DNA from: a virus
Length of the DNA: 64,000 nucleotides
Strand: one strand, 5' to 3'
Virus record (IMG/VR): IMGVR_UViG_3300049783_001127
In this document: positions 12 to 63,338 of the stretch, one piece after another
Position numbering within the stretch: position 1 is the stretch's first letter
Layout of the letters: every line of letters starts with the position of its first letter
Notes under the pieces: model-generated
Seen by the model: only the letters and a program-made list of their open reading frames with translations
Databases searched by the model: none
Told to the model about the DNA's origin: nothing
Position numbers and translations under genes: made by a program

Positions 12-3000
12 ATGCAGGACAACATGAAGTCCTTTACAGAAAAAGGTAATCTTCAAAAAGCGTATAGTGATAGAATTGAAGCTCTTGATGATTTTGAAGG
101 AAGAGTTAAAGCTTTATATTGGAATGCAGCTGTACTTGATGGTTCTGTTGATAGAATTAATGAGTACTTAAAAGATATGGTTGATCAACCGGATCAAGCT
201 AAAGCACTACACCAGATATCATTCTTTACACAAAGTATGGAGCAATGGAAAACTTATTTGCTTAATTTTCTAGAGTCTATGGAGAAAGTAGACATTGCTG
301 AAAATTCACCCATAGTTGCGGATATCAATGCTATTAAAGAGAAAATTGAAAGAACAGAAACTAGCATTAATAAAATATACAGGAAAGCTACAACAGATGT
401 ACTTATTGATTATGTGCAAGGGATCAATGCAGACATAATGAAAGCATCTGCAGATAGAATTAAGCGTTGGACTGATAGTGAAGGTAAACCTAATAGCAGA
501 CTATCAGCAGAATATATTGCTAAAGAGATTAAAGAAAGGGATGAAGCATACATCAGTAAAGATGATATGTTAGACTATATAATGGGTAAAAAAGGTGATA
601 TAGGTTTTATGAGTGCTTGGTTTGAAAACTATGCTTCAAGTCAAGATCCATCTATTGCTTCATTTGCTATGTATATAAAAAAGCATTTATCTGATGTAAG
701 TAATAAGGTTCACACTAAGCATAATGAATTTTTAACTAAGTTAGAACCTCTTATTGAAAGATTGGGTGTTAATCCTTCTCAGATTGATAAGTTTTCAGAT
801 AACTTTATTTTTGTAGATAAGACAGTAAGAAAAAATCCTGAGACGAATGAACTTGAAGAGTATGAAGTATACACATACTTGAATGAATTTAAGAACTATA
901 AATATGATAAAGCTATACTTACCGATAGGGTTGCAAAAGCTGAAGCATTAATGTTTGAAGATCCTTCAAATGAAGAAGTAAAAAAAGAATATATTGAAGC
1001 AGTAGGTGCCAAAATGGAGCATGAAAAGTATTTCTTTCATAAGGAATATATAGATGACTATTACTATGCTGATGATGTACTAGACACTACTGAAATTGGC
1101 CGTAAAGCCAAATCACTAAGAGCTGAAAAACTTGAACCTATTAGTGATTATGCTAAGCTACATAATGACAACTCAGAATTATATGAAAATTATGAAGCAC
1201 TAGATATATTCTGGAGAGAATATAGACAACTGTATTCTTTATATGATGAGTATGGAAAAGCTAAAATTGGTGAAGAACTTCAAATAGCCGAAGTACTCAG
1301 AGATCAAAGAGAAGCTAAGAAGCATTTTTATGAATACAATGAGATATCAGGTAAGTTTCAAATCACATACCAACACTTTAGAACTAAAGAAGGTATTAAA
1401 CTGGAACGTGAAGGTATGACCAAAGGTACGGATAAGTACAATGAAGAACTTGACCGTAGAACCAAGCTATGGACTGATAGAAATACACGCACTAAGATCA
1501 AAGATTCTTTCTATGAAGAAAAAGCTAAAATAGTAGATAGAATTAAATCTATTATGGAAGGTGCTAATAATGAAAAGGGTAACTATGATGTTGAGTATGA
1601 AACCATTATGGAAACTCTTAAAGGTAAAAAAGATGACAACGGCCAACCTGTTGCTACTGAAATGACTCCTGAATTACTTAAGAGTATTAAAGATCTTGAG
1701 CAAAAAATTCAAGATGGTAAAGATCAATTGATTGAAGCTAGTGGTTTGACTCCTAATGATTGGGCTATCCTTAAAGGTTTTTATAAAAGAATACAAGATA
1801 AAGATAAGCTTAACCAAAATGAGAGAGCCTTATTTAAAGAACTTACTGATAAGAAAAACAAAATGGGGCTTAGTAAAACAGCTAAAGCTCAGTTACTTAT
1901 ACAGTTTGAAAAACTAAATAACTTACAGTCTAAGATTGCTACTGATTATTACATTACCATAGTTAATGATTTTTATGGGGTTATTCAACAAGACAGTAAC
2001 ACAGAAAATCCTATAGACATTACAAATGAAAATGTTAACAAGTTTAATGATTATGAATTTGTACAAAGCTTGTTTAAAGAAAGTCCTGAATTTAAGATTT
2101 GGTTTGAAGACAATCATATTGAGAAAGAGGTATTTAATTGGCAAAAGAAAGATCTTGAAAAGGTATATGTTAGAACTGCAGCATGGTCTGTAACTAAACC
2201 TAAAAAAGATAAATACTATGAAACTACTGAAATTCTAGATGCTGATGGTAACACTATTAGTATAGACGGTATTCCTAGTATGAAATACTTTGACCGTACT
2301 GTAAAAAATCAATACAAAACAGGATATAACGCGTCAACAGGAACTATAAATCTTAAAGTGGGTGAACATATCAGCAGAGAAGGTTTATCCTTTCCAGATT
2401 TACCTTATGGGCTTAAGAAGATGGAAGAGCTCAAAGATAAGTATCCTAACAAGTATGCTGAACAAAACTTTGCATGGGATCATTATATTAATAGAGACTT
2501 TGAAAAGATTAAAAATGAGAATGGTGCTCAATATGAAGCTTTAGAACTCATTAAAGATTTCCATTTAGAAGCTCAAAAAAATCTTGAAAGAAATGGTATA
2601 CTAGGATTAGAGTTACCAAGATTTAGAAAAGATAGATATGAATACTTAAAATCAGGTACACTTAAAGAAGATGGTGCCGGTAAAATCCATGAATTCAAAC
2701 AGGGATTCTTACAATTTTGGGGTAAAAAGAGAGATGATTTAGAAGAAGGTCTTAACTATGACGCTCAGACAGCTATGGGTGAGATTGATTTGTATGCAGG
2801 TACAGAAGGTAAAGTTCCAGTAAGAGGTAAATATAATCTTGATTTAGGTCAAGTATCTAGAGATATCATTACGCGTGAGATGCAATACTATCTTTCTACT
2901 GAGCAAAACAGAAAACTTAGAGAAATACAACCAATTGCTAGAGCTTTACAGAAATTGGCTGTAGATAACAACCCTGCAGATGTTGAATCACTAGGAAAAC

Positions 3001-4517
3001 TTACTGCCACTCAAAGAAACATTGGACGTTTCAAATCTAAAGATAGTAATAACAGAGGAAAGGTTATAACTTCCATGGTTGAAACATTTTTTGAAGGAAA
3101 AAGATTATTTGAAGGAGGTAACAATAATGCTACTACTATTAAAGTAATGAACAATGCTTTGGGTATGGCATCACATGCTTTCTTTGCTTTTGATGTTACT
3201 TCAGCTATGAAGAACTTTATTGGTGCACAATTTCAAATTGCTTTAGAAGGCGCAGGAAGCAAGCATTTTAGATATAGTGATTGGCATGCAGGTAGACCAT
3301 GGGCTTCTAAAGCTATGTGGACAATATCAATGGATGTATATAGTACTAAAGCTAAAAGTTTGGATGTGCAAATTGTTGATGTGTTTGATGCTATTCAAGG
3401 TAGATTTGAAGAAAAGTTTGGTGAATCACCAGGTAGATCCATAGGTAGAGATATTGCCAGCTTAACTTGGATGACTTCTCATAGAAAATGGTTAGAAACT
3501 GAAGCATCACTTCAATTGTTTTCTGCAATAATGCAAGCAACTAAAGTAGATCAAGTACAAGAAGATGGTACTATAAAAAAAATAAAGTATATAAATGCTT
3601 GGGAGCTCAATGAAGAGACTAAAAGTATTCAGCTTAAGCCTGGTATAGATAAAGAATGGGATCTTAATGGTAGTAAGTTTGATGAAGTTAAATTTAAAAA
3701 TCATGAAGTATCAAACTTCTTACAAGGGGCTTATGCAAATTTTGATCAACCCATGATTAACAGAGCTTTAGCTTGGAGAATGGTGTCTTCAATGAGAAAG
3801 TTCTTTACTAAGATGTTACTTAACAGATATGGTTTTAGAGGTAGTTGGAGAGATCCAAAAGAAAGATACAATCTTCCTACTAACTCTATGCATATGGGAT
3901 TTTATGTACGTAACATGAAAACTATGATGAAGATCATAAGAAGTAAAGGTCAGTACATGATGATGATGACTAAAGATGAACAGAATGCTTTTAAGAAAGG
4001 TATCCTTGAGCTACTTAAATTATGGTTATTGCAAGCATCTTATATGTGGATATGGGGCTTCAATCCAGATGATGAAGACAGATGGAATAAACTTAAAGGT
4101 AAATCAGGTGCATTACCAACATTTTTTACAGATGAAGAATGGTCAGAAAATTGGAACTTAAGTGGATGGTTATCTAATCATACACTGCTTCTGGCCATGC
4201 ACGTAGAAGCAGAGAACGAACACTTTATTCCATTTCCTGGTTATGGTATGTCTGATATGATTAACATTACAAGTCAAACTTCAATTGCATCAGGTCCATC
4301 TATTGGGGCACTTAGCAAAATACTTACTAACGTAATATTTGCAATAGGTGGTGATGACTCAGTATACTACAAACAAGATACAGGAGCATTAAACGTTCAA
4401 CAAGAAGAAGAGTGGAAAGGGTGGAGAGAGATCTATAAAATGTTTGGTATGAAAGGTAAAATGATTGATCCTACTACTTCTATTAAAAACTTTCAAGGAA
4501 TGAGAAACAAAAACTAG
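12..4517 (+). CDS. Very large hypothetical protein, 5'-truncated at the window edge (1501 aa visible)
   Basis: Single uninterrupted ORF. The reading frame is open upstream of the listed ATG back to the window start. K/E-rich. No catalytic motif recognised. Ends at a hairpin terminator. Confidence 0.75.
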   Translation: MQDNMKSFTEKGNLQKAYSDRIEALDDFEGRVKALYWNAAVLDGSVDRINEYLKDMVDQPDQAKALHQISFFTQSMEQWKTYLLNFLESMEKVDIAENSPIVADINAIKEKIERTETSINKIYRKATTDVLIDYVQGINADIMKASADRIKRWTDSEGKPNSRLSAEYIAKEIKERDEAYISKDDMLDYIMGKKGDIGFMSAWFENYASSQDPSIASFAMYIKKHLSDVSNKVHTKHNEFLTKLEPLIERLGVNPSQIDKFSDNFIFVDKTVRKNPETNELEEYEVYTYLNEFKNYKYDKAILTDRVAKAEALMFEDPSNEEVKKEYIEAVGAKMEHEKYFFHKEYIDDYYYADDVLDTTEIGRKAKSLRAEKLEPISDYAKLHNDNSELYENYEALDIFWREYRQLYSLYDEYGKAKIGEELQIAEVLRDQREAKKHFYEYNEISGKFQITYQHFRTKEGIKLEREGMTKGTDKYNEELDRRTKLWTDRNTRTKIKDSFYEEKAKIVDRIKSIMEGANNEKGNYDVEYETIMETLKGKKDDNGQPVATEMTPELLKSIKDLEQKIQDGKDQLIEASGLTPNDWAILKGFYKRIQDKDKLNQNERALFKELTDKKNKMGLSKTAKAQLLIQFEKLNNLQSKIATDYYITIVNDFYGVIQQDSNTENPIDITNENVNKFNDYEFVQSLFKESPEFKIWFEDNHIEKEVFNWQKKDLEKVYVRTAAWSVTKPKKDKYYETTEILDADGNTISIDGIPSMKYFDRTVKNQYKTGYNASTGTINLKVGEHISREGLSFPDLPYGLKKMEELKDKYPNKYAEQNFAWDHYINRDFEKIKNENGAQYEALELIKDFHLEAQKNLERNGILGLELPRFRKDRYEYLKSGTLKEDGAGKIHEFKQGFLQFWGKKRDDLEEGLNYDAQTAMGEIDLYAGTEGKVPVRGKYNLDLGQVSRDIITREMQYYLSTEQNRKLREIQPIARALQKLAVDNNPADVESLGKLTATQRNIGRFKSKDSNNRGKVITSMVETFFEGKRLFEGGNNNATTIKVMNNALGMASHAFFAFDVTSAMKNFIGAQFQIALEGAGSKHFRYSDWHAGRPWASKAMWTISMDVYSTKAKSLDVQIVDVFDAIQGRFEEKFGESPGRSIGRDIASLTWMTSHRKWLETEASLQLFSAIMQATKVDQVQEDGTIKKIKYINAWELNEETKSIQLKPGIDKEWDLNGSKFDEVKFKNHEVSNFLQGAYANFDQPMINRALAWRMVSSMRKFFTKMLLNRYGFRGSWRDPKERYNLPTNSMHMGFYVRNMKTMMKIIRSKGQYMMMMTKDEQNAFKKGILELLKLWLLQASYMWIWGFNPDDEDRWNKLKGKSGALPTFFTDEEWSENWNLSGWLSNHTLLLAMHVEAENEHFIPFPGYGMSDMINITSQTSIASGPSIGALSKILTNVIFAIGGDDSVYYKQDTGALNVQQEEEWKGWREIYKMFGMKGKMIDPTTSIKNFQGMRNKN

Positions 4518-5772: not shown

Positions 5773-7683
<1,911 letters not shown>

Positions 7684-7687
<4 letters not shown>

Positions 7688-7989
7688 TCTAATAATAGTT
7701 TAGTGTCTCCTGCACAGATATACAACTGTATGAGTTCCTGATCACAATCTAAACAAGTTTGTTTACTTTGCTTCAATGGTGCATCAAGTAAACTGTTATG
7801 TTCAAATCTTACATTTATCCCTGTAACATTTTCTGTCATAAACATAGGCAAGTAAATATTTTTATCACAACAAGTGCAAGCACCTTCTATAACAAACATT
7901 TCTCCCACTTGATCTATAACAGGGCAGAATAAAGGCGCCGGAAATGAGTTACTCATTGGTTTGATTTTTCCTACTGGTCTTCTAATCAT
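7684..7989 (-). CDS. Small zinc-ribbon-like protein (paralog of 7385..7687)
   Basis: CTCCDKNIY...CLDCDQ. 4-nt ATGA overlap with the neighbouring genes. Confidence 0.55.
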
Positions 7990-8201
7990 TACTCTACAAA
8001 TTTAGCATTTACTTTTAACATAAGCATCCTAAGTGCTGTATCTTTACAAGGAATACATGTACCATCAATAGGTCCACCTTTAATTGCAGTCTGACCACAT
8101 ATGGAACATTTATTAAATCTGCCTCCCCACATGAGTTGTTTTTCATGTTCAGTTGCTATTATTGCCATGGCTTTCCTTTGACTATCCTGCATAAAACTCA
8201 T
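7989..8201 (-). CDS. Small zinc-ribbon-like protein
   Basis: CSICGQ...CIPCKD. Ends KFVE* with a stop/start overlap. Confidence 0.55.
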   Translation of the reverse strand: MSFMQDSQRKAMAIIATEHEKQLMWGGRFNKCSICGQTAIKGGPIDGTCIPCKDTALRMLMLKVNAKFVE

Positions 8202-8395
8202 TCTACAAGTTTTGCTTTCTTCTGTGCTTTACAGAATTTTTTAAAGTTTTCATTACAATCATTACAGAATGGTCTTACATCATGACTCCGCACAGGCCAA
8301 TAATTATTATCACATCCTTCACAAGTAGGTAGTTGAGTATTATAAATTTTTAGGTTTGCACTAGCTAACTGTTTCCACAGACCATCCTTACTCAT
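8198..8395 (-). CDS. Small Cys-rich zinc-binding-like protein
   Basis: CEGCDNNYW...CNDCNENFKKFC. Ends KLVE* with an ATGA overlap. Confidence 0.55.
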   Translation of the reverse strand: MSKDGLWKQLASANLKIYNTQLPTCEGCDNNYWPVRSHDVRPFCNDCNENFKKFCKAQKKAKLVE

Positions 8396-22735: not shown

Positions 22736-23191
22736 TTAATTGTTTAATTCTGAGTTAAATAACCCAAGCATATGCATAGCATCTGCAATGTTATCATCCT
22801 CTCCTGTGTAACCGTACTTGGTTTTTGCTGCATCTATCATGGCTTGCTTTCCACAATTACCATTGTCAGTTGCAAACTTCTTGATCTCTTTAGCTGAGTA
22901 TGCTCTATAGTTAATACCAACTTCTTCACAAAACTTCTCTATAATAGCAATCATCTTAGATTGGTGCATAACAGAAGCAACGTGTTGACCGGCTGGTCTT
23001 TCATATATAATAACATCCAGCTTTTCAACTTTATGAATTTCTTGTAGTTTGGCCTTGAGTCTTATCAATTTCATTCCCATGGATTCATCCTTAAGGGTCT
23101 TTAGATCCCAAGTGCCATACAAGTTTTGAGTGTCAATGCACCATCCAGTTGTACTGGCTACATCTAAGCTTAATACTTTTAATACTTTCAT
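22736..23191 (-). CDS. RuvC-like Holliday junction resolvase
   Basis: N-terminal SLDVASTTGWCI (catalytic Asp block), IIYERP (Glu), C-terminal DNIADAMHM (Asp) - an RNase H-fold resolvase pattern. Confidence 0.6.
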   Translation of the reverse strand: MKVLKVLSLDVASTTGWCIDTQNLYGTWDLKTLKDESMGMKLIRLKAKLQEIHKVEKLDVIIYERPAGQHVASVMHQSKMIAIIEKFCEEVGINYRAYSAKEIKKFATDNGNCGKQAMIDAAKTKYGYTGEDDNIADAMHMLGLFNSELNN

Positions 23192-23445
23192 TCTACAAAT
23201 TTTAAGTTTCCTTTAACTTTACAATGCATATATTTTTTAAATAAATATGCTGAAATATACCTAACGTCATCTCTCTTAAGTGTAGATGATTTGTAGAATT
23301 GACACAAATCATATAAGACCCATGCAAAAGCTTCATTCTCTTCATGGATTTTTTCAATATTATTTATTAAAAGTATACTTTTAAATTGATCAATAGAAAG
23401 TTCATTGTTTACAGGATCAACACCTGCTATTATAAAATCATTCAT
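23188..23445 (-). CDS. Hypothetical protein
   Basis: 85 aa. Ends KFVE* with an ATGA overlap. Confidence 0.45.
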   Translation of the reverse strand: MNDFIIAGVDPVNNELSIDQFKSILLINNIEKIHEENEAFAWVLYDLCQFYKSSTLKRDDVRYISAYLFKKYMHCKVKGNLKFVE

Positions 23446-28557: not shown

Positions 28558-28608
28558 TGATATTTTGTTATTAGGTTAATAATGTGTATATTAATATAAA
28601 CATACACT

Positions 28609-28854
28609 ATGAATTTTACATTTTTTAGAGACATCTCTATGGAAGATAAAGGTGGCAAATATTCCTCAAAGAAAATTTGGGGACATCTTATTATGCTCCT
28701 TGTTGGTACAGCATTTGTCTTAGATGGCCTACATTGGTTTGTAATTGATGAAGGTCTTTTTAACTCTATGCTTATTGCTGGTACAACTTTACTTGGTTTG
28801 AACACTATTAGTTCAATTATTACAAAGAAAAGCAATAAAGATGAAATTAAGTAA
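28609..28854 (+). CDS. Small two-TM membrane protein (holin-like topology)
   Basis: 81 aa with two hydrophobic helices (HLIMLLVGTAFVL / MLIAGTTLLGLNTISSII) and a charged C-terminus. Confidence 0.45.
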   Translation: MNFTFFRDISMEDKGGKYSSKKIWGHLIMLLVGTAFVLDGLHWFVIDEGLFNSMLIAGTTLLGLNTISSIITKKSNKDEIK

Positions 28855-29176
28855 ATCTAACATATCAATTTTTATACTATTAGGTATAATACTAGTGTTA
28901 GCATACATCCTAACCTTCAGAAAGCAAGATCCAATAGAGGTTCCTGCTTTTGATGATAATGAACTCCGTAAGGAAATTACTAAATCTGATAGTGTAGCTT
29001 CTCACTGGGAACAGAAAGCAAAAAGCTTCCGGGACGATGCTCTTTACTATGAAGCAAAGGCTGATGGACTTGAAGTACTTAAACCACAAATAAAAAACTA
29101 TTATGATAAGATCTACAAGTTTAATTCTACTGCTTCTAACAGGGAACGTGACTCAATCATACGCGCAAACTGGTGA
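28841..29176 (+). CDS. N-terminally anchored membrane protein (i-spanin-like topology)
   Basis: 111 aa. TM helix ISIFILLGIILVLAYILTF followed by a charged, helical periplasmic domain. Confidence 0.4.
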   Translation: MKLSKSNISIFILLGIILVLAYILTFRKQDPIEVPAFDDNELRKEITKSDSVASHWEQKAKSFRDDALYYEAKADGLEVLKPQIKNYYDKIYKFNSTASNRERDSIIRANW

Positions 29177-29525
29177 AGATAGTCTTCAGTGTTATACACC
29201 TACGGATCTTCAGCATATTGTAAACAGAGTTGTAAGAGCTAAAGAATGTGACACTTTATTAATAACATGTGAAAAGCAACTAGCACTTAAAGACAGTGCT
29301 AATGTTGCTCTTCATAATGCTATTGATGCCAAAGATCTTGTTATCATAGAGATGAACAAGATATCCGACCTTAAGGAACTCATCATAGATGGGCAATCTG
29401 TTGAAATAACAGGTCTAAGACAAGCCCTTAAGAAAGAAAAAAGTAAAAAGACCTGGTTAAAGGTTGGTTGGGTCAGTACTACGGTTGTTCTTACCGGCGT
29501 CCTCACTTACTTCATCATAAATTAG
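29103..29525 (+). CDS. Protein with N-terminal signal-like segment and C-terminal TM helix; starts in the +1 frame inside the preceding ORF
   Basis: MIRSTSLILLLLTG... at the N-terminus, coiled-coil middle, C-terminal WLKVGWVSTTVVLTGVLTYFII. Overlaps 28841..29176 by 74 nt. Confidence 0.35.
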   Translation: MIRSTSLILLLLTGNVTQSYAQTGEDSLQCYTPTDLQHIVNRVVRAKECDTLLITCEKQLALKDSANVALHNAIDAKDLVIIEMNKISDLKELIIDGQSVEITGLRQALKKEKSKKTWLKVGWVSTTVVLTGVLTYFIIN

Positions 29526-35609: not shown

Positions 35610-35982
35610 TATCTCCAAGTTCTATACAGGCCTGAATGGCCAAGTTTAGGTCATCTCTGGAACAATCTCCAAAAGACTTCCAATCCATATACTCTTTATC
35701 TAGTACATTTCTTCTTACTACTAAACCAGCACGATCTTTAATAACCATTTTGATATCATCAAAAGTGTTACCTGATTGGTTTGCTATCACTCTAATGCAT
35801 TTATGCACTTTAGCTAGCTGTGATAAAGTACCATCTCCAGAATTAATTTCCATAAAGAAATCTAACACTATACCTTGATCCAGTATTTTTACAAATTCTT
35901 TATAACGTACTTCATCTCCACTCTTTACATGTATAAGTCTATCACCACTCTTCTTAAGTGATGAGCTGAACATTCCATCCAT
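35587..35982 (-). CDS. Hypothetical protein
   Basis: 131-aa ORF. Start overlaps the upstream stop (GAATAATGG). Confidence 0.45.
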   Translation of the reverse strand: MDGMFSSSLKKSGDRLIHVKSGDEVRYKEFVKILDQGIVLDFFMEINSGDGTLSQLAKVHKCIRVIANQSGNTFDDIKMVIKDRAGLVVRRNVLDKEYMDWKSFGDCSRDDLNLAIQACIELGDTMTLNLR

Positions 35983-36212
35983 TATTCTAAAAATTTAAAA
36001 GAGCCTGTTAATACCTTGGTTATATGTTTATGAGCTGATTTACATTCTGATTCAGTATAAAACATCCAAAACCAAATTGAGCCTTTATCATCTTTATACT
36101 CAATTTGCCATTGACCTGGTGTATTAGGCATCTGTATAAAGGTAGGATCTTTAATACCATCAACTTTATCAGAATTATACAGAGTATCATTTACTTTAAA
36201 CCATTTGGCCAT
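35982..36212 (-). CDS. Hypothetical protein
   Basis: 76 aa, ends KFLE*. Confidence 0.4.
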   Translation of the reverse strand: MAKWFKVNDTLYNSDKVDGIKDPTFIQMPNTPGQWQIEYKDDKGSIWFWMFYTESECKSAHKHITKVLTGSFKFLE

Positions 36213-36831: not shown

Positions 36832-37152
36832 TTAGATTAACTTTTTTTGTTTTTTAAGTTTTCTCCAAGGAGCACACATTCTTTGTTGTCTGGATAACTT
36901 AATCATTCTTAAGTCATATCCAAGATCTCCAAGAACATCTTTTCCATGTTGATTTATACTAGGGATAGCAACAATATATCCGCCCCCTGTACTTTGCCAA
37001 TAAATAGGTATTGCCTTATTTCCACGCATACCTTTGGCCAGTTCATCTAAAGCTCGCATACTTGTTCTAGCTTCTTCTTGAGAGTGATCTCTGATGTAAA
37101 TTCTAACTTCACCAAATACACCATCAAACTTTCTACTGTCATCATATCCCAT
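36832..37152 (-). CDS. Hypothetical protein
   Basis: 106-aa ORF. Confidence 0.4.
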   Translation of the reverse strand: MGYDDSRKFDGVFGEVRIYIRDHSQEEARTSMRALDELAKGMRGNKAIPIYWQSTGGGYIVAIPSINQHGKDVLGDLGYDLRMIKLSRQQRMCAPWRKLKKQKKLI

Positions 37153-37412
37153 TATTCTTCAATTAACTTAATAACATTCTCAGTACTTACAGCTGGTATT
37201 TTAACCGACTCCAATACTTCTTGGCTTTCTTCTTTACTTACCCAGTGTACTTGAATATATAGTACACCTAAATCTTTTCTTAATTGCGTTTTGGCTTCTA
37301 CTATACGTTTTTGGTTATCCTTACCCTTAAGAGGGTATAACATAATAGTTATACCACCTTTTCCTTCAAGTCCCCATTCATATTTGATGCCGTTTGTACT
37401 TAGTTCAATCAT
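37152..37412 (-). CDS. Hypothetical protein
   Basis: 86-aa ORF. Confidence 0.4.
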   Translation of the reverse strand: MIELSTNGIKYEWGLEGKGGITIMLYPLKGKDNQKRIVEAKTQLRKDLGVLYIQVHWVSKEESQEVLESVKIPAVSTENVIKLIEE

Positions 37413-40787: not shown

Positions 40788-41198
40788 TTATTCTAGTAGA
40801 TTCATCTCACGGGCTTCTTTAGGGTGCTCGTGAATATAAGTGTGACAAGCTCTACATACAGCTAACCATGTAGCTACTACTAGGTAGTTAGAACCTCTTT
40901 GGGATACGTGATGCACATCACTTGATGCTCCTTGGCAACAAGGTAAGTGTGCTTCACACATAGGATGGGACTCCATAAATGGTTTCCTTAAGATACCATA
41001 TGCTGCGTCTAATCCTTGTTGTTTCTTTGATTTGGGGTTGATTGGTTTTTGTGCTTTAGGTTTGAATCCTTCTTTCTTGAACTTAATAGCTTGCCAGCAA
41101 TACTGGCAATACTTGTTACCTTCATGATTTTTCCAGATTACTTTTTCCTCTGAACATCCATTACATGTCTTCAGCTTCTTCTCCATCTTCTGTTCCAA
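40788..41198 (-). CDS. HNH endonuclease
   Basis: CNGC...CQYC zinc knuckle plus HHV..R...N...CRACHTYIH (HNH core). Confidence 0.6.
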   Translation of the reverse strand: MEQKMEKKLKTCNGCSEEKVIWKNHEGNKYCQYCWQAIKFKKEGFKPKAQKPINPKSKKQQGLDAAYGILRKPFMESHPMCEAHLPCCQGASSDVHHVSQRGSNYLVVATWLAVCRACHTYIHEHPKEAREMNLLE

Positions 41199-43688: not shown

Positions 43689-44642
43689 TTAGAATGGTAA
43701 GTCATCATCCAATGATCCCACACTAACTGAACGAGTGTTTCTGCTTAGCATGGGACCTCCTCCCCACAAATGTACGATATCCTTGATCCCTTTCTCCTTC
43801 CTGGAGATTCTCTTCAGAAACAACTCAGGATTAAATCCTATACCCGTCCAGTCAATCTTAGTGCTAATCAATTGTGCTTTTTCTTGAAGTTTCCTTCCAT
43901 AAGCGTCATAATCAACAACAAGTCTATTCTTCAGTGTGGTGTCTCCCGAAATAGGGTGAAACAAACTAACAACAGCTCTGGGGTCTAGGCTATTATATAA
44001 AAGTGTCTCAGCTTCTAATCTAATTCTAAAATGTTTGTAGAATAGATATAATGCTGAAGCATCTTCTTTTTGTAATCCACAAGTTCTCTTTAACAAATAG
44101 GTGACCCTATATGCCATAGCTTCTTCTGTAGATGTAACTTTTCCTGCTAATATAGAACCAATAAGTCCTTTAGTAGCAATCTTTTGGATTACTTTGTCAT
44201 TAAGTAATTCCTTAGCAGATGGATTAACTGTATCTATCAAATGATTAAACACTTTGGTAACTAATATACTATTGATATTATGTCTTCCCCAAACTGTTAG
44301 TCTTGATGCAGCTCTACCCTTCTTGTGGTATGTAACACCTTCAGTTGGATTACCACCTTTAATGAACAATACACCTTTAGAACCTTTCATTACTCTGTTT
44401 CTTCTTTCCACTACATGTACTTTCTCATCACCATCTGTTATGGCAATAGATGAATACGCAAGTTGTCCAGAATAATGCATTCCTCTACCACCAGAGTTAA
44501 ATACATAGGCTTGAAACTTCTTAGGTTTAGTCATTAATTCTTCAATATTCTTACGTCTTGCTTGTGCATAGTGATCTAACACGTACCTTGTATTGCTTAC
44601 TTTCTTTTCCATAGTTGTAAGTATAAAAGGGTCTGCTATCAC
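43689..44642 (-). CDS. Hypothetical protein ending in the SSB-tail motif DDDLPF
   Basis: 317 aa. The C-terminal hexapeptide DDDLPF matches the bacterial SSB C-terminal tip (DDDIPF). Confidence 0.5.
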   Translation of the reverse strand: MIADPFILTTMEKKVSNTRYVLDHYAQARRKNIEELMTKPKKFQAYVFNSGGRGMHYSGQLAYSSIAITDGDEKVHVVERRNRVMKGSKGVLFIKGGNPTEGVTYHKKGRAASRLTVWGRHNINSILVTKVFNHLIDTVNPSAKELLNDKVIQKIATKGLIGSILAGKVTSTEEAMAYRVTYLLKRTCGLQKEDASALYLFYKHFRIRLEAETLLYNSLDPRAVVSLFHPISGDTTLKNRLVVDYDAYGRKLQEKAQLISTKIDWTGIGFNPELFLKRISRKEKGIKDIVHLWGGGPMLSRNTRSVSVGSLDDDLPF

Positions 44643-48379: not shown

Positions 48380-48643
48380 CTATTCTAATAGCTTGTTACC
48401 ATCTTTAGTAATTATTTTCCATACATCATCTGTAAGCGTCATTGCTGCTCTATCTGATTTTTGTGCAATATGAGCACAAGGTAGATCTTGATCTTTGAAA
48501 TTGATATAATGAAACAATATGCTATGTAAATGATCATAAAGTTCTTGTTTCTTATTTACTTTTTTCATTCTAATATATTTGAATAAAGTCTCATTACAGA
48601 GCCTACACACTGGATTATTACTTCTGTCATTGATAGTGCCCAT
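48380..48643 (-). CDS. Hypothetical protein (CRLC motif)
   Basis: 87-aa ORF, ends KLLE*. Confidence 0.35.
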   Translation of the reverse strand: MGTINDRSNNPVCRLCNETLFKYIRMKKVNKKQELYDHLHSILFHYINFKDQDLPCAHIAQKSDRAAMTLTDDVWKIITKDGNKLLE

Positions 48644-51156: not shown

Positions 51157-51870
51157 TTGTTTAGCTTTAAATTGTTAATAAGTATCTCATCTGATTGTTC
51201 ACAGGCTCCTTAGTCAAGGTCCTGATATGTTTATTTACACCGTTACCTCCATAGCAAGTATAGTCAGTTACTGGTTTTTGAGAGTCTTTACTGACTCATT
51301 CAATCAGATGAGAATAAAATACCTGTCCATTTCTAAGTAATGGATTACTATAACCCCTTGGACTCTAACCAAGAACCTCCCGAAAGTGTACTAATTGTAC
51401 CAGAGTTTGATAAGTATCTTACAATAAACAACGTCATCTTAGCATGACTGTGAAGTACTCAATCCCAGACATTCCCCGATTACTCAGTATGTTTCTGACT
51501 TCGTATCAATCACTGTTTATCTTCAGCAGGTAGTATTTTAATAAGTATGAATATGACTTAGATAGCGTAATCACCAGTCCCAATAGAGCTTGTTTCCTTC
51601 TCTGTCAGTTACACCAATTATCCACCATATCATATTCAATATCCTCCCTACAAGGTTGCACCTTGATTATCCACTAATGAAAGTGTTTCGTGCCTTACGC
51701 ACTTTGCCTGCAGTTGGATAGGGAAACCTTTGTCACAAGGTTTTAGTATTGTTAAATGCTATCTTAGTCTTTGGTTTTGTGTTTCTTCTTCCTAGTATAC
51801 TTAGTCTTATCCTTGTACACATTAGGCCTAGTAGCTTGGTTAATCTCTTCTTGAGTTACTACAATCTTCT

Positions 51871-52059
51871 TCATGATAATTTTCTAATTCTAGCTTGCAG
51901 CTCAATGAGTTCAATAATATGTTTAAATGACTCATTTTGATCCTCTAAATTCTGGATATATGCATCTGAATATCTCTCAGATTTACTGAGACATTCAAAA
52001 TTGTGTTTAAGAACATCTAATACAGCTACATGAGCTTTAAGGTTTTCAAGTTCAGTCAT
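51871..52059 (-). CDS. Hypothetical protein
   Basis: 62-aa ORF. Start lies in a TTGTAGAATGA overlap. Confidence 0.4.
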   Translation of the reverse strand: MTELENLKAHVAVLDVLKHNFECLSKSERYSDAYIQNLEDQNESFKHIIELIELQARIRKLS

Positions 52060-52307
52060 TCTACAAATTTTATATTTCTGTTAATAGGTACTGTCTTAAC
52101 CATCTGATAACCAAATGTTCTTGAGTAATTATCCTTTTCAGCCTGATCTTCAGTATAACTAATGAAGGCTGAGAATGCTTTGTGAGCCAGCTTAATTGTC
52201 TTAAACACTGTAGCATCACGTGGATCCTCAACAATTTGTTCCCTTGTTGCATTATAGAATAGTTCATGAGTCTTATTTATTACAATATAGCTCTTAAATG
52301 CTTTCAT
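52056..52307 (-). CDS. Hypothetical protein
   Basis: 83 aa, ends KFVE*. Confidence 0.45.
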   Translation of the reverse strand: MKAFKSYIVINKTHELFYNATREQIVEDPRDATVFKTIKLAHKAFSAFISYTEDQAEKDNYSRTFGYQMVKTVPINRNIKFVE

Positions 52308-52840: not shown

Positions 52841-52913
52841 AATTAGTTAGATTTATAGTTAATTTCAGTTGTTCCGGATACATTTATACTCTTCCTCATC
52901 TATAGAGAGAAGA

Positions 52914-54691: not shown

Positions 54692-54719
54692 ATTTAATTT
54701 TTAGTTATTCCGGATATCA

Positions 54720-55004
54720 TCATTCTACAATAGGACTAGACTCAACTAATCTTACTGATACCTTGTGTACCTTGAAATCAAATGGTGAGTAGTTACTGTC
54801 TGTAGCTAACCATGATTTAGGAAGGAAATGAAAGCATATTGTTGAAGGTGTTCTTTGATCATTAAATACTGTTGCATTGTGCAAGTGTGAAATGATACTA
54901 AACTTACCTTCTATCTTTCTATCAGCTTTATAGTAAATGTTTCTAGTCTTGTGTTTAATGACCCACATAAGGTTCAGGTTTTGATAGTTATGATTAGGAT
55001 ACAT
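54720..55004 (-). CDS. Hypothetical protein
   Basis: 94 aa, ends IVE* in an ATTGTAGAATGA overlap. Confidence 0.45.
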   Translation of the reverse strand: MYPNHNYQNLNLMWVIKHKTRNIYYKADRKIEGKFSIISHLHNATVFNDQRTPSTICFHFLPKSWLATDSNYSPFDFKVHKVSVRLVESSPIVE

Positions 55005-55076
55005 AGTTAAATTTAGTTATTCCGGATATATTTATACTAATCTTCATATAGAAGAAGAGACAAATAACATAGAGGT

Positions 55077-60747: not shown

Positions 60748-60820
60748 GGAGGTATAGCAAAGATGGACTATGCGGGGGTTTGAAGAACCTTAGATCCAAG
60801 ATCGTTACTTGGTGCCTCCA
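60748..60820 (+). tRNA. tRNA-like element / probable pseudo-tRNA (73 nt, aberrant anticodon arm)
   Basis: Acceptor GGAGGTA/TGCCTCC and T-arm CCAAG-ATCGTTA-CTTGG are present, but the anticodon stem is poor. Confidence 0.3.
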
Positions 60821-60825
60821 CACAT

Positions 60826-60896
60826 GGGATGGATTATGGTGATAGCCGGGACTGTAAATCCCTAGCAGGTTGGTTCGAGTCCAGCGCATCCCACCA
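60826..60896 (+). tRNA. tRNA (anticodon read as GTA, Tyr?; atypical short form)
   Basis: T-arm GTTGG-TTCGAGT-CCAGC. Acceptor GGGATGG/GCATCCC, discriminator A plus an encoded CCA. D-arm irregular. Confidence 0.4.
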
Positions 60897-60901
60897 ATTA
60901 T

Positions 60902-60985
60902 AGAGGGCATCCGGCTGGATGAGGAGCTGATCTTGAAAATCAGTAGCACTGAAAGGTGTTTAGAGTTCGAGTCTCTAGCCCTCTA
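60902..60985 (+). tRNA. tRNA-Ser(TGA), class II
   Basis: Acceptor AGAGGGC/GCCCTCT, anticodon stem CTGAT/ATCAG with loop CTTGAAA, long variable arm, T-arm TAGAG-TTCGAGT-CTCTA. Confidence 0.65.
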
Positions 60986-60990
60986 CATAC

Positions 60991-61059
60991 GCGTCTCAGG
61001 CCGGGGTGGCCAAACGGATTCCAAACCCGTAGGGCAGAGTTCAACTCTTTGGGGGCGCG
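60991..61059 (+). tRNA. tRNA (anticodon read as CCA, Trp?)
   Basis: Acceptor GCGTCTC/GGGGCGC (two G-U pairs), anticodon loop TTCCAAA, T-arm CAGAG-TTCAACT-CTTTG. Confidence 0.4.
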
Positions 61060-61064
61060 CAAAT

Positions 61065-61135
61065 GGTACCATGAGTGAGTGGCTAACTGCCGGTCTGCAA
61101 AACCGGTTACGCTGGTTCAAATCCAGCTGGTACCT
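61065..61135 (+). tRNA. tRNA-Cys(GCA)
   Basis: Acceptor GGTACCA/TGGTACC, anticodon stem CCGGT/ACCGG with loop CTGCAAA, T-arm GCTGG-TTCAAAT-CCAGC. Confidence 0.7.
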
Positions 61136-61227
61136 CAAACAGAGAGAGAACCTACCTGGGTAGGCTGCCCCTGCTAAGGGCATGGGTGTGAAAGCACTGG
61201 GGATCAAGGCCTCCTCTCTCTACAAAT

Positions 61228-61309
61228 GCCTTTGTGGTGGAATTGGGAGACACAGCGGTCTTAGAAGCCGTGGCTGAAATGCATGAGAGTTCGAGTCTCT
61301 CCAGAGGTA
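61228..61309 (+). tRNA. tRNA-Leu(TAG), class II
   Basis: Acceptor GCCTTTG/CAGAGGT (G-U pairs), anticodon loop CTTAGAA, long variable arm, T-arm GAGAG-TTCGAGT-CTCTC. Confidence 0.5.
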
Positions 61310-61320
61310 CAATAACAAAT

Positions 61321-61393
61321 GCCCCCGTAGCTCAACTGCTAGAGCAACGCTCTTCTACAGCGTGGGTTAGAGGTTGGAATCCTCTCGGGGGTA
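61321..61393 (+). tRNA. tRNA-Arg(TCT)
   Basis: Acceptor GCCCCCG/CGGGGGT, D-stem GCTC/GAGC, anticodon stem ACGCT/AGCGT with loop CTTCTAC. Confidence 0.7.
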
Positions 61394-61401
61394 CTATACA
61401 A

Positions 61402-61474
61402 GGGGAAGTAGCTCAACAGCTAGAGCACTTGGCTACGAACTAAGAGGTTATGAGTTGGACTCTCATCTTTCCCT
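61402..61474 (+). tRNA. tRNA-Arg(ACG)
   Basis: Acceptor GGGGAAG/CTTTCCC, D-stem GCTC/GAGC, anticodon loop CTACGAA. Confidence 0.65.
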
Positions 61475-61479
61475 CTACT

Positions 61480-61563
61480 GCTCCAGTGGTGGAAATGGCT
61501 ATACACGACAGGCTTAAGACCTGTTGCCTTTAAGGATTGGGGGTTCGAATCCCTCCTGGAGTA
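61480..61563 (+). tRNA. tRNA-Leu(TAA), class II
   Basis: Acceptor GCTCCAG/CTGGAGT, anticodon stem ACAGG/CCTGT with loop CTTAAGA, long variable arm, T-arm GGGGG-TTCGAAT-CCCTC. Followed by a T-run. Confidence 0.65.
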
Positions 61564-61764
61564 CTTTTTTTAAAAATAATTGCTAATTAATTTGGTAGTT
61601 AAGAAACTATGCCTATATTTGCTTTAATAAACACTTAGAAACAGCATGTACAAGATACAACATATGGCGCCCGCAACGGCAATTACTAATCAGGTAGAAG
61701 GGAAAGATCCCAGCTGCCCGGAGAAGTCATATATGTAACTTAGTAACTACTAACTATACATTAA

Positions 61765-61793
61765 GCTCTCCGGGAAACCAGAGGGCTTTTTTT
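61765..61793 (+). terminator. Intrinsic terminator with a GNRA (GAAA) tetraloop inside the tRNA cluster
   Basis: GCTCTCCGG-gaaa-CCAGAGGGC followed by TTTTTTT. Confidence 0.6.
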
Positions 61794-61806
61794 ATGCCCG
61801 ATATAT

Positions 61807-61879
61807 CTAGATGTATATCAGTTGGTAGATGGCCTGCTTTGGGAGCAGGAGGCCGGGGGTTCGAGTCCCTCCATCTAGA
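61807..61879 (+). tRNA. tRNA-Pro(TGG)
   Basis: Acceptor CTAGATG/CATCTAG, anticodon stem CCTGC/GCAGG with loop TTTGGGA, T-loop TTCGAGT. Confidence 0.65.
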
Positions 61880-61893
61880 CTAAAAAATAACTA

Positions 61894-62054
61894 TGGATGA
61901 ATTAAGAGCAGAAATTGCAGAATTAGAAAGTACGTTAACAGGAGACATGTTTCAAGATATGGAGATAAAAGATAAAATCCATAATCTAAACATGAAACTA
62001 ACTGGGACAAAACCAACAGATAGTCACTTTGACTGTGTAGGATGTGGTAGTTAA
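61894..62054 (+). CDS. Small ORF (53 aa, MDELRAEIAELESTLTGDMFQDM...CVGCGS) inside the tRNA array
   Basis: ATG-started ORF filling the gap between tRNA-Pro and tRNA-Ala. Not in the track (under 60 aa). Confidence 0.3.
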
Positions 62055-62061
62055 AACAAAT

Positions 62062-62134
62062 GGGGAAGTAGCTCAAATGGATGAGCATCTGCCTTGCACG
62101 CAGAAGGATGAGGGTTCAACTCCCTTCTTCTCCA
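62062..62134 (+). tRNA. tRNA-Ala(TGC)
   Basis: Acceptor GGGGAAG/CTTCTCC, D-stem GCTC/GAGC, anticodon stem TCTGC/GCAGA with loop CTTGCAC, T-loop TTCAACT. Confidence 0.7.
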
Positions 62135-62167
62135 CAAATACAGACTTGGAAATCTGTATTATGCACA

Positions 62168-62240
62168 AGCGCGCTGTAGCTTAATGCTAAAGCATCTGCC
62201 TTCCAAGCAGAGGACGGAGTTGGATTCTCACGGTGCGCTC
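62168..62240 (+). tRNA. tRNA-Gly(TCC)-like (irregular T-stem; possibly degenerate)
   Basis: Anticodon stem TCTGC/GCAGA with loop CTTCCAA. The T-stem needs a bulged nucleotide. Confidence 0.4.
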
Positions 62241-62249
62241 AATTAATAT

Positions 62250-62325
62250 GGTCTATGGGGCTGCTTGGTGTGGCCACTCCCCTGTCACGGGAGATATCAG
62301 ATGGGTTCAAATCCCATATGGACCG
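62250..62325 (+). tRNA. tRNA-Asp(GTC)
   Basis: Acceptor GGTCTAT/ATGGACC, anticodon stem CTCCC/GGGAG with loop CTGTCAC, T-arm ATGGG-TTCAAAT-CCCAT. Confidence 0.65.
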
Positions 62326-62392
62326 CAGAGAGAGAGATGCAGGTAATCCTGCCCGACAGGTGGTGTAATTAACATACTCTCTATTAAATTAT

Positions 62393-62463
62393 GCCTCATA
62401 AGCTTTAAGGTGAAGCTCTTGACTGTTAATCAAAGGAAGGTGGCTCAATCCCATCATGAGGCG
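62393..62463 (+). tRNA. tRNA-Asn(GTT)
   Basis: Acceptor GCCTCAT/ATGAGGC, D-stem GCTT/AAGC, anticodon loop CTGTTAA. Confidence 0.55.
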
Positions 62464-62469
62464 CAAAAC

Positions 62470-62543
62470 AGGTGTATAGCTCAATTGGTTAGAGCACTTC
62501 GCTGATACCGAAGAGGTTATAGGTTCAATTCCTATTATACCTA
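62470..62543 (+). tRNA. tRNA-Ile(GAT)
   Basis: D-arm GCTC-AATTGGTT-AGAGC, anticodon stem CTTCG/CGAAG with loop CTGATAC, T-arm ATAGG-TTCAATT-CCTAT. Confidence 0.7.
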
Positions 62544-62554
62544 CAATATAAAAT

Positions 62555-62628
62555 AGGAGTATAGCTCAGGGGTTTAGAGCACTTCCCTTACAAGGAATAG
62601 GTCCGGGGTTCAAATCCCTGTACTCCTA
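62555..62628 (+). tRNA. tRNA-Val(TAC)
   Basis: Acceptor AGGAGTA/TACTCCT, D-stem GCTC/GAGC, anticodon loop CTTACAA, T-arm CGGGG-TTCAAAT-CCCTG. Confidence 0.6.
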
Positions 62629-62677
62629 CAGAAGAAAAAAGTATTATGAAAAAGAAGATAAAGATATTGAAACACTT

Positions 62678-62750
62678 AGTCCCCTAGCTCAACGGTTAGA
62701 GCATCACTCTTATAAGGTGAAGGTTATCAGTTCAATTCTGATGGGGGCTA
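62678..62750 (+). tRNA. tRNA with anticodon TAT (Ile-UAU type, AUA decoder)
   Basis: Acceptor AGTCCCC/GGGGGCT, D-stem GCTC/GAGC, anticodon stem TCACT/GGTGA with loop CTTATAA. Confidence 0.55.
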
Positions 62751-62759
62751 CAACAACAA

Positions 62760-62831
62760 GCCCCCTTAGCTCAATGGCGGAGCCACCGGCTTTTAACCGG
62801 TAGGACATTGGATCAGTACCAATAGGGGGTA
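62760..62831 (+). tRNA. tRNA-Lys(TTT)
   Basis: Acceptor GCCCCCT/AGGGGGT, anticodon stem ACCGG/CCGGT with loop CTTTTAA, T-stem ATTGG/CCAAT. Confidence 0.65.
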
Positions 62832-62842
62832 CAAAAATATAT

Positions 62843-62916
62843 AGCGGGATGGGAAGTAATTGGTAACTCCTTGGTCTCATAAGCCAACGTTCCGGGTTCA
62901 AGTCCCGGTTCCGCTA
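62843..62916 (+). tRNA. tRNA-Met(CAT) (Met/fMet/Ile2 type undetermined)
   Basis: Acceptor AGCGGGA/TTCCGCT, anticodon stem TTGGT/GCCAA with loop CTCATAA, T-arm CCGGG-TTCAAGT-CCCGG. Confidence 0.6.
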
Positions 62917-62990
62917 CCAACTAGTAAAGTTAAACACAATGAGAGTAGATTCAGACATATCAGAAGTAGAAGAAGGAGAAGAGACAATAT

Positions 62991-63063
62991 GCTCCGTTCT
63001 TCTAACTGGTCAGGAAACCACACTTTCAATGTGGCAACACGGGTTCGAGCCCCGTACGGAGTA
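62991..63063 (+). tRNA. tRNA-Glu(TTC)
   Basis: Acceptor GCTCCGT/ACGGAGT, anticodon stem CCACA/TGTGG with loop CTTTCAA, T-arm ACGGG-TTCGAGC-CCCGT. Confidence 0.65.
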
Positions 63064-63110
63064 CCATCAGAGTACGCTACATCTGTTCTAGGTGTAGCAC
63101 CACAATTCAA

Positions 63111-63183
63111 GCTTCTAAAACATTTAATGGATGATGTCTGCTCTTGTAAAGCAGGGAACTAGGTTCGATTCCTAGTGGGAGCT
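63111..63183 (+). tRNA. tRNA-Thr(TGT)
   Basis: Acceptor GCTTCTA/TGGGAGC (G-U pairs), anticodon stem CTGCT/AGCAG with loop CTTGTAA, T-arm CTAGG-TTCGATT-CCTAG. Confidence 0.55.
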
Positions 63184-63191
63184 CTATATCT

Positions 63192-63266
63192 TGCCCGGTA
63201 GACAAAGTAGGCAAAGTCACCACACTTTGAATGTGGAATTTGTAGGTTCGAGGCCTGCCCGGGCAA
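63192..63266 (+). tRNA. tRNA-Gln(TTG)
   Basis: Acceptor TGCCCGG/CCGGGCA, anticodon stem CCACA/TGTGG with loop CTTTGAA, T-loop TTCGAGG. Confidence 0.6.
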
Positions 63267-63268
63267 CT

Positions 63269-63338
63269 GTGTTATTAGCTTATTGGTAAAGTGCTAGACT
63301 GTGAATCTAGAGAAGAGGGTTCGATTCCCCATAACACC
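63269..63338 (+). tRNA. tRNA-His(GTG)
   Basis: Acceptor GTGTTAT/ATAACAC, anticodon stem CTAGA/TCTAG with loop CTGTGAA, T-loop TTCGATT. Confidence 0.55.

Follow-up and report, generated by a model that had tools for sequence, protein, structure and literature searches.

A recurrent 11-mer at gene junctions of a large uncultivated phage: a possible shared C-terminal tail written over the ribosome-loading signal of the next gene

Introduction

The stretch of viral DNA analysed here (64,000 nucleotides of IMG/VR virus record IMGVR_UViG_3300049783_001127, hereafter the window) carries a recurrent 11-mer, TTGTAGAATGA, which lies on the last codons and the stop codon of small genes, for the most part where this stop codon overlaps the start codon of the next gene. 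The closest described system is termination-reinitiation at ATGA and TAATG overlaps, in which the upstream gene contains the initiation region of the downstream one (Huber et al. 2019, PMC6728339). In Bacteroidetes, the Shine-Dalgarno (SD) sequence is not used for reinitiation, and no substitute for it is known (PMC6728339). With regard to initiation itself, translation in Flavobacterium johnsoniae is stimulated by A at positions -3, -6, -12, and -13 (Baez et al. 2019, PMC6847099). Translational coupling in Bacteroidota and in their phages, which ignore SD sequences, is poorly understood.

Other systems show how short sequences can recur at gene ends and gene starts. Shared C-terminal docking tails include the …DDDIPF tail of SSB and the clamp-binding C-termini of the T4 proteins gp43, gp33, and gp55. 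T4 RegA operators are AU-rich sites that overlap the AUG of early genes, with AAAAUUGUUAUGUAA as the consensus obtained by systematic evolution of ligands by exponential enrichment (SELEX). Finally, lambdoid phage module-boundary linkers and T4-type PeSL cassettes represent short conserved sequences at gene boundaries.

The locus described here has in common with docking tails that unrelated proteins of one phage carry the same short motif at their extreme C-terminus; to our knowledge, no known tail motif matches hydrophobic-[V/L]-Glu-COOH. It resembles translational coupling as described by Huber et al. (PMC6728339) in its 4-nt and 1-nt overlaps as well as in the position of the downstream loading signal, which lies in the last codons of the upstream gene and constrains the C-terminal residues. 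By contrast, there is no SD sequence at this locus, the embedded signal is an A-rich region of the Bacteroidia type, a specific tail peptide is conserved beyond what coupling alone predicts, and coupling is here a prediction from sequence. Our best explanation, to which we assign a probability of roughly 0.45, is that the 11-mer represents a shared protein tail written on the ribosome-loading signal of the next gene at translationally coupled junctions, i.e., the product of three stacked constraints and not a free-standing signal. With approximately 10 junctions that use one spelling beside approximately 12 overlaps that do not, the locus provides a compact natural test set.

Results and Discussion

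The exact 11-mer TTGTAGAATGA occurs four times in the window, each time on the minus strand (8198-8208, 23188-23198, 52056-52066, and 54720-54730), as compared to 0.11 copies expected from dinucleotide shuffles; none of 100 shuffles yielded four copies. An earlier note on this DNA had considered the repeat to be non-random and had proposed a count against shuffled controls, and this count, run on the window, bears that view out. A codon-aware null, which asks for NTT-GTA-GAA as the last three codons given the codon frequencies of the genome itself, predicts 0.014 such gene ends among 89 genes (P = 1.4e-9 for at least four). Copies with up to two mismatches, on the other hand, show no general enrichment (46 versus 43.7 expected), and the 11-mer signal is therefore restricted to gene ends; the last codons and the stop codon of some gene underlie all four exact copies as well as a variant, TTTGTAGAGTAATGA, at 7989. 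Minus-strand genes occupy 4.6-55.8 kb nearly without gaps. The part of the motif that is invariant across sites is TAGAAT(G/A)A, not TTTG, and there is no conservation across sites on the 3' side beyond the A that follows the ATG. The recurrent 11-mer is real and selected. The sites, which include four (7684, 48565, 40788, and 48380) that add to those listed in the earlier note, and the related features are as follows.

7385..8395, minus strand: four small zinc-ribbon ORFans (g8395; g8201 of family A; g7989 and g7687 of family B), with the motif at all three internal junctions
8198..8208, minus strand: exact 11-mer closing g8395 (…KAKLVE-TGA), whose stop overlaps the g8201 ATG
7989..8003, minus strand: variant TTTGTAGAGTAATGA closing the family A gene g8201 (…NAKFVE-TAA), whose stop forms a TAATG overlap with the start of the family B gene g7989
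7684..7694, minus strand: TATTAGAATGA at the end of the family B gene g7989 (…KLLLE-TGA), with an ATGA overlap onto its paralogue g7687
23188..23204, minus strand: exact 17-mer TAAAATTTGTAGAATGA at the end of the ORFan g23445 (…NLKFVE-TGA), overlapping the ATG of a RuvC-like gene (22736-23191)
23289..23299, minus strand: ATTCTACAAAT, perfectly complementary over 11 nt to the motif copy at 23192-23202, with which it is predicted to pair in a fold that masks the RuvC start
35982..35996, minus strand: loose copy TTTTTAGAATAATG closing g36212 (…FKFLE-TAA), whose stop forms a TAATG overlap with the start of a 131-aa gene
37152..37166, minus strand: looser copy TTGAAGAATAATG at the end of g37412 (…KLIEE-TAA), with a TAATG overlap; not in the strict NTA-GAA family
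40788..40799, minus strand: CTACTAGAATAA at the end of the HNH-endonuclease-like g41186 (…MNLLE-TAA), with no start for 214 nt
48380..48391, minus strand: CTATTAGAATAG, a tail without an overlapping start
48565..48575, minus strand: TATTAGAATGA at the end of g48924 (…SNILE-TGA), with an ATGA overlap; the ATG at 48568 opens a 62-aa open reading frame (ORF), which itself ends …NKLLE-TAG at 48380
52056..52072, minus strand: the 17-mer TAAAATTTGTAGAATGA again, closing g52307 (…NIKFVE-TGA), whose stop overlaps the start codon of a 62-aa gene (51871-52059)
54720..54730, minus strand: exact 11-mer at the end of g55004 (…SSPIVE-TGA), without a real gene start

In the earlier note, every copy had been placed on a stop/start overlap behind a gene ending in K-[FLI]-[VL]-E, with TTTG approximately 5 nt before the ATG. 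The overlap is present at the exact sites 8198, 23188, and 52056 and at the variant 7989, but not at 54720, where the overlapping ATG opens only 9 codons and the next gene starts 28 nt further on. The same copy departs from the peptide rule, since its gene ends in P-I-V-E and lacks the Lys. TTTG is found at 23188, 52056, and 7989; 8198 and 54720 have CTTG and ATTG, respectively. The fifth site was correctly given as a variant (TTTGTAGAGTAATGA, 7989-8003), and the looser versions at 35982 and 37152 are as described there. The right half of the 54720 copy belongs to a repeated intergenic element (54700-54727 matches 55012-55039).

These copies are part of a larger family of gene ends. Ten of 94 genes end in hydrophobic-[V/L]-Glu, always spelled NTA-GAA-stop (8198, 7989, 7684, 23188, 35982, 40788, 48380, 48565, 52056, and 54720), and all ten encode proteins of no more than 132 aa. 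With the internal tripeptide frequency as the null, ends of the form Phi-Phi-E (Phi, hydrophobic residue) were observed 9 times versus 0.62 expected (p = 1.4e-8) and ends of the form [KN]-Phi-Phi-E 7 times versus 0.085 expected (p = 4.6e-12) in the set of 89 genes. An exact overlap with the next start (ATGA or TAATG) is found in 7 of the 10 tail genes (8198, 23188, 52056, 7684, 48565, 7989, and 35982, but not 54720, 40788, or 48380), as compared to 12 of the 84 other genes (Fisher p = 4e-4); the association also holds among genes of up to 135 aa (p = 1e-3). Translational coupling, which had been put forward as a fallback idea, fits these data. The codon for Val or Leu is NTA in 18/18 tails from the window and its relatives, versus 54% in internal [VL]-E pairs, and all KFVE tails use the spelling AAA-TTT-GTA.

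Two sets of relatives were available for comparison. A distant set of 80 IMG/VR relatives (1.1 Mb in total) was found via GroEL (60-69% identical); it contains 0 copies of the 11-mer, Phi-Phi-E-type tails occur in 1.2% of its genes, and 2 of its 162 ATGA junctions carry the tail, versus 6 of 14 in the window. Closer relatives were reached via the DNA polymerase and comprise L288/L289 (~80% nucleotide identity to the window in conserved genes; L289, the nearest relative, is the 37-kb contig Ga0452209_003392), L286 (81% amino-acid identity), L287 (75%), as well as L372, L373, and L374 (72%). Contigs that encode an identical RuvC protein match the window at 99.98-100% identity and therefore offer no variation to compare.

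In the closer relatives, the tail follows the upstream protein. Family A, a small zinc-ribbon family with members in the window (g8201), L289, L286, L374, and L372, is only ~30% identical, and yet four of its five members end in KFVE, spelled AAATTTGTAGA(A/G)T(G/A)A each time, and the remaining one in WLLE. Family B (g7989 and members in L289, L286, L287, and L374) ends in L[LV]E or WLE, a tail found in 5/6 members. The C-terminal end is thus conserved in both families despite an overall identity of about 25-40%. What follows family B, by contrast, varies: it may be a paralogue in ATGA overlap, GroEL at a distance of 12 nt, or a PRA-PH gene, or there may be no gene at all for 40 nt. The motif is retained without a following start at the L289 and L286 members of family B, at 40788, and at 48380. 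Conversely, the RuvC start in L287 has no motif and directly overlaps a primase-like gene, and in L289 and L286, sequences other than the motif stand before the start of the family A gene. The motif is hence not tied to the downstream gene start, as it is kept when the downstream gene changes or is absent and is missing before orthologous downstream genes. While the earlier note had proposed a functional nucleotide element that constrains the peptide, the direction of the constraint looks reversed, since the tail is kept with the upstream family and downstream orthologues start without the motif.

The nucleotides of the motif can be related to how genes of this phage start. No SD sequence was detected at the 59 free-standing and 30 overlapping starts that were profiled. 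In overlapping and free-standing starts alike, A peaks at -14 to -10 (0.73-0.80 at -12) and at -3 (0.53-0.60), which matches the positions of the F. johnsoniae determinants, and G accounts for no more than 7% at most positions from -14 to -4 of the free-standing starts. TAAA begins at -15 to -13 in 35/89 genes and falls within -20 to -9 in 51/89 genes, versus 11% of random positions. This TAAA word is likely the ribosome-loading signal of an SD-less phage. It is positioned before most minus-strand genes between 4.6 and 55.8 kb, overlapping genes included, often as CTTAAA, CTAAA, or CCCCTTAAA, and the relatives L001-L008 have TATAAAA at a comparable distance before their starts.

At the motif copies, the initiation signal of the downstream gene (TAAA element and A at -3) is found inside the upstream gene. 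The extended motif, (C)TTAAA(A)TTTGTAGAATGA, places a TAAA(A) block, the source of the Lys AAA codon, at -13 to -9; in ATGA overlaps, the last base of GTA or TTA provides the A at -3, and in TAATG overlaps that at -6. The motif also has G at -5 and -2, against the G-poor context of other starts, and both are needed for Val and Glu. Compared to the SD-less initiation region of Bacteroidia (PMC6847099), the window thus shares the A peaks at -14 to -10 and -3, and the motif puts AAA(A) at -12 to -9 and A at -3; unlike that region, the motif carries T at -6 and G at -5 and -2 and is not the plain optimum, and the TAAA word of the phage is sharper and held at a fixed distance.

These observations can be combined into a mechanism with three layers. 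First, small early proteins, many of them zinc-ribbon ORFans and a few of them unrelated ORFans with a lookalike of ~7-11 residues, would keep the tail [K/N]-hydrophobic-[V/L]-Glu-COOH. Second, the A-rich region of the next gene (TAAA at approximately -15 to -13, A at -3 or -6) would sit in the last codons of these genes, fixing Lys as AAA and Val or Leu as NTA. Third, the ATGA (or TAATG) overlap would fix Glu as GAA and the stop codon as TGA. A K-F-V-E peptide, an initiation region, and an overlap would therefore permit essentially one spelling, AAA TTT GTA GAA TGA, and the same 11 to 17 nt would recur because the three constraints leave almost no synonymous freedom. Ribosomes that finish the small upstream gene would terminate on the next start codon and reinitiate there. 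We infer that coupling or reinitiation occurs at the motif junctions and that the tail has a role at the protein level, e.g., in binding a partner that the carriers have in common or in shielding the C-terminus. The junction itself is best explained as a site of translational coupling, copies of which moved in part together with gene cassettes. Should the tail prove to be a protein motif, the otherwise anonymous early ORFans that carry it would likely share a partner or a fate, which would provide a handle on phage "dark matter". For annotation, exact recurrent oligomers at gene ends can come from stacked coding and initiation constraints and do not call for a promoter by default.

Several observations weigh against this explanation. 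NTA is used in all 6 tails that lack an overlapping start (p ~0.025), and an argument from the initiation region leaves NTA unexplained in these tails. At position -6, the motif has T instead of the favoured A. At the corresponding place in L286, the homologue of g8395 carries CTTGATAGAGATGG, with the upstream frame changed and an ATG still following; this junction reads like conservation at the nucleotide level. The carriers of the tail are all ORFans except for one HNH-like protein (searches of the carriers against Pfam and PHROGs found nothing except for HNH-like g41186), and the tail has no known function; a search with family A returned 2 matches in 1.84 billion representatives, and a homology search with family B returned the 5 known members only. 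These four points together leave some room for a signal that acts at the RNA level. In addition, the 80 distant relatives do without the motif, which is therefore not required for coupling on such ribosomes. Finally, identical tails of 7-11 residues on unrelated proteins (g23445, the L289 member of family A, and g52307, which ends in NRNIKFVE) are hard to reach by convergence. The last 11 residues are alike in g23445 (CKVKGNLKFVE), g8395 (CKAQKKAKLVE), and the L289 member of family A (AVKKRNLKFVE), the bodies of these proteins differ, and the 3' ends of the three genes are similar over ~35 nt or 11 aa. Given that the last ~11 residues are alike on otherwise dissimilar proteins, some tails were probably copied rather than invented, and a recombination-linker component therefore stays alive.

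An RNA-level explanation would hold that a dedicated cis-acting RNA element at the junction is selected and that the peptide is a passenger; such an element could enhance termination-reinitiation on an SD-less ribosome in a sequence-specific manner, or it could serve as the operator of a phage-encoded translational regulator resembling T4 RegA. This explanation, which we regard as unlikely, draws on the strong association of the motif with exact stop/start overlaps and on the fixed synonymous positions (NTA in 18/18 tails, AAA-TTT-GTA in every KFVE tail), with NTA kept even where there is no overlap, as well as on the L286 junction, where CTTGATAGAGATGG keeps the nucleotides in another upstream frame. 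Upstream complements are predicted to pair with the motif over 11 bp at 23188 and over 9 bp at 8198, an arrangement reminiscent of structure-gated coupling. In g23445, this pairing involves an 11-nt perfect inverted repeat (23289-23299 versus 23192-23202, ~86 nt apart) with a predicted pairing probability of ~0.9; the 9-bp analogue in g8395 (~8260-8270 versus 8200-8209) includes two G-U pairs. A search of the window for a small RNA complementary to the motif found only these local inverted repeats inside g23445 and g8395. That Bacteroidetes do not use SD sequences in reinitiation (PMC6728339) is also consistent with a dedicated element. Against it, the motif tracks the upstream family and not the downstream gene and is kept at four places without a start (the L289 and L286 members of family B, 40788, and 48380), 12 other exact overlaps in the window and more than 300 ATGA or TAATG gene-end motifs in the relatives lack it, conservation stops at the A after the ATG, and TAGA is not enriched before starts in general. 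With respect to T4 RegA operators, the likeness lies in a recurrent AU-rich sequence over the start codons of some early and replication genes, and the SELEX consensus AAAAUUGUUAUGUAA is alike in style; unlike these operators, the motif stays with the upstream protein and is also found where no start follows. No candidate regulator was found, and none of 20 proteins scanned against Pfam or PHROGs was RegA-like. In its specific form, in which TTGTAGAATGA or its core NUAGAAUGA would be a sequence-specific RNA signal for reinitiation or regulator binding and the tail peptide merely its translation, the proposal appears quite improbable. If true, however, it would provide SD-less ribosomes with their first specific reinitiation or operator element.

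Three other ways of reading the junction were tried and rejected. An overlapping ORF that ends at the out-of-frame TAG would have only 2-23 open codons upstream; an upstream extension of the downstream frame, as expected for a fusion or frameshift product, is open for only 2-28 codons; and the heptamer AAATTTG is in the wrong register for a -1 frameshift.

The motif could also be a portable junction or recombination linker, in which the last 20-35 nt of a zinc-ribbon-type gene plus ATGA form a shared boundary for inserting, duplicating, and swapping small accessory genes, such that unrelated gene bodies inherit one 3' end. Compared to L289, the zinc-ribbon array cannot be aligned despite flanks that are ~80% identical at the nucleotide level, and g8395 and g7687 are extra cassettes bounded by motif copies. 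Compared to L287, g23445 is an insertion whose position coincides exactly with the RuvC start and which comes with a tandem duplication of 9 nt; this ORFan, for which a search of 5.8 billion proteins found no homologue but itself, brings …TTTGTAGA up to the RuvC ATG. The duplication may be the footprint of the g23445 insertion; at the start of the RuvC-like gene (23165-23191, minus strand), on the edge of the insertion, tandem AAAGTATTA AAAGTATTA yields MKVLKVL, versus MKVL in L287. The breakpoints fit the motif for g23445, g8395, and g7687, which represent three events only, with no relative covering the sites at 35-55 kb. The likeness over ~35 nt or 11 aa between the 3' ends of g23445, g8395, and the L289 family A gene, as well as a PDDEXK/DUF3799-type exonuclease encoded by the phage, would also suit a linker. 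A neutral linker, however, would decay in families that are ~30% identical, so that other selection would still be required; in addition, simple copying does not explain why the left part of the motif shifts by 1 nt between copies (TAAA-TTTG versus TAAAA-TTTG), no motif is shared by the cassettes at their 5' ends, and only two or three insertion events enter the comparison. Lambdoid linkers and PeSL cassettes likewise place conserved short boundary sequences around variable small ORFans in a hyperplastic region, but the piece conserved here codes for a C-terminal tail, lacks a promoter or stem-loop, and is kept over deep divergence. Overall, we consider it doubtful that a linker accounts for the motif.

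The reading preferred in the earlier note, a Bacteroidota-type -7 promoter (TAnnTTTG) with transcripts that start at or next to the ATG and hence yield leaderless mRNAs, is very unlikely. An exact TAAATTTG is present at 7989, i.e., one of the five sites cited there, and in its orthologues in L289, L286, and L374; L289 even has TTG-N19-TAAATTTG, and the 4-5 nt that separate the -7 element from the transcription start site in F. johnsoniae (PMC6847099) would put the start on or next to the ATG. At 23188 and 52056, however, there is an extra base (TA-N3-TTTG), and 8198 and 54720 lack both TA and TTTG. In the window as a whole, TAnnTTTG occurs 35 times on the minus strand, which is the gene strand, and 33 times on the plus strand, mostly inside genes and only once within 20 nt of a start; there is thus neither a strand bias nor a concentration before genes. 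The invariant TAGAAT(G/A)A would fall in the region of the transcription start, and three promoters in 520 nt for successive small genes are unlikely. Leaderless mRNAs are, moreover, rare in the model Flavobacterium, where 87% of transcripts have leaders of more than 10 nt (PMC6847099), and a leaderless transcript would lose the TAAA element found before most genes. Relative to Bacteroidota sigma-A promoters (-33 TTTG, -7 TAnnTTTG), the likeness is limited to TAAATTTG at the junction between families A and B, in a position from which transcription would start near the ATG; most copies lack this sequence, it shows no strand or intergenic enrichment, and there is no consistent -33 element.

A repeat between early-region genes is a candidate promoter or operator. 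This intergenic repeat, AGTATAAAT(A/G)TATCCGGAA(T/C)AACT(A/G)AA in the minus sense, is found at 55012-55039, 54700-54727, and ~52865-52895, i.e., 8-20 nt before the ATG of g55004, g54691, and g52840, and holds a TATAAAT box as well as a TCCGGA palindrome. The 11-mer at 54720 is a degenerate copy of its left end.

That the repeats arose by chance or through the codon or composition bias of an AT-rich genome is hardly credible and is effectively refuted already: all codons of the 11-mer are the commonest for their amino acid in the genome and paralogy links some sites (g7989/g7687 and, weakly, g8395/g41186 and g52307/g55004), but paralogy among the carrier proteins accounts for some pairs only, the codon-aware test and the tail enrichment give P values far too low (1.4e-9 and 1.4e-8 to 4.6e-12, respectively), the 11-mer is missing from the 1.1 Mb of related phages, and the tail is conserved across orthologues that are only ~30% identical.

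Other features of the phage

The window belongs to a large uncultivated phage with a Bacteroidota, Flavobacteriales-type host. It has a GC content of ~34% and encodes GroEL, DNA polymerase, a helicase, a RuvC-like resolvase, a further helicase of the DnaB type, and a MoxR/DUF2201 pair; the source contig is ~65 kb long, and contigs related to it measure up to 90-290 kb. Among cellular GroELs, those closest to the phage protein all come from Bacteroidota, the best being metagenome-assembled genomes (MAGs) of Flavobacteriales (Fluviicola, Cryomorphaceae, Crocinitomicaceae, and Taishania) at 71-74% identity. Together with gene starts that lack SD sequences, this agrees with the Bacteroidota-like setting assumed in the earlier note. 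Megablast of 20 kb of the window found no match among INPHARED phages. A metagenome scan with a 381-aa protein found no match, one with GroEL returned mainly bacterial GroELs, and a scan of IMG/VR with AAANTTGTAGAATGA gave at least 120 unrelated single matches and was uninformative.

The zinc-ribbon array consists of CxxC…CxxC ORFans between conserved replication genes (7385-8395 on the minus strand of the window, 9771-10300 in L289, 4048-5346 in L286, 14017-14465 in L374, and 13804-14506 in L373). Its copy number and membership differ in every relative, and its tails vary by lineage (KFVE, LVE, WLE, WWFKE, and NWKLK). In the window, g7687 (7385-7460, minus strand) aligns with family B up to …KLFE and then has 13 extra codons (GAA GGA ATG ACA …) that extend into GroEL by 17 nt, as though a GAA-TGA stop present in the ancestor had been lost.

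A 307-aa protein (43689-44612, minus strand) ends in …LDDDLPF, an SSB-like acidic tail, and proteins in the same neighbourhood of the relatives end in …NIPF or …SIPF. A very large plus-strand ORF (12-4517, 1501 aa), which has no match in PHROGs, runs off the window; in L286, L287, L289, L372, and L373, the large ORF measures 2013-2028 aa and precedes a second one of 2691-3631 aa; there is a weak ART-PolyVal match. The longest stretches without minus-strand genes are 51157-51870 (714 nt) and 28558-29456 (899 nt), both empty in Rfam; the latter holds plus-strand ORFs of 81-140 aa. Rfam identified tRNAs only in the window. The tRNA array (60748-63341, plus strand) comprises 20 genes according to ARAGORN, to which Rfam adds one at 62393-62463, and includes readers of A-ending codons (Leu-UAA, Leu-UAG, Val-UAC, Glu-UUC, Lys-UUU, and Ile-UAU); over this array, the GC content climbs to 38-42%.

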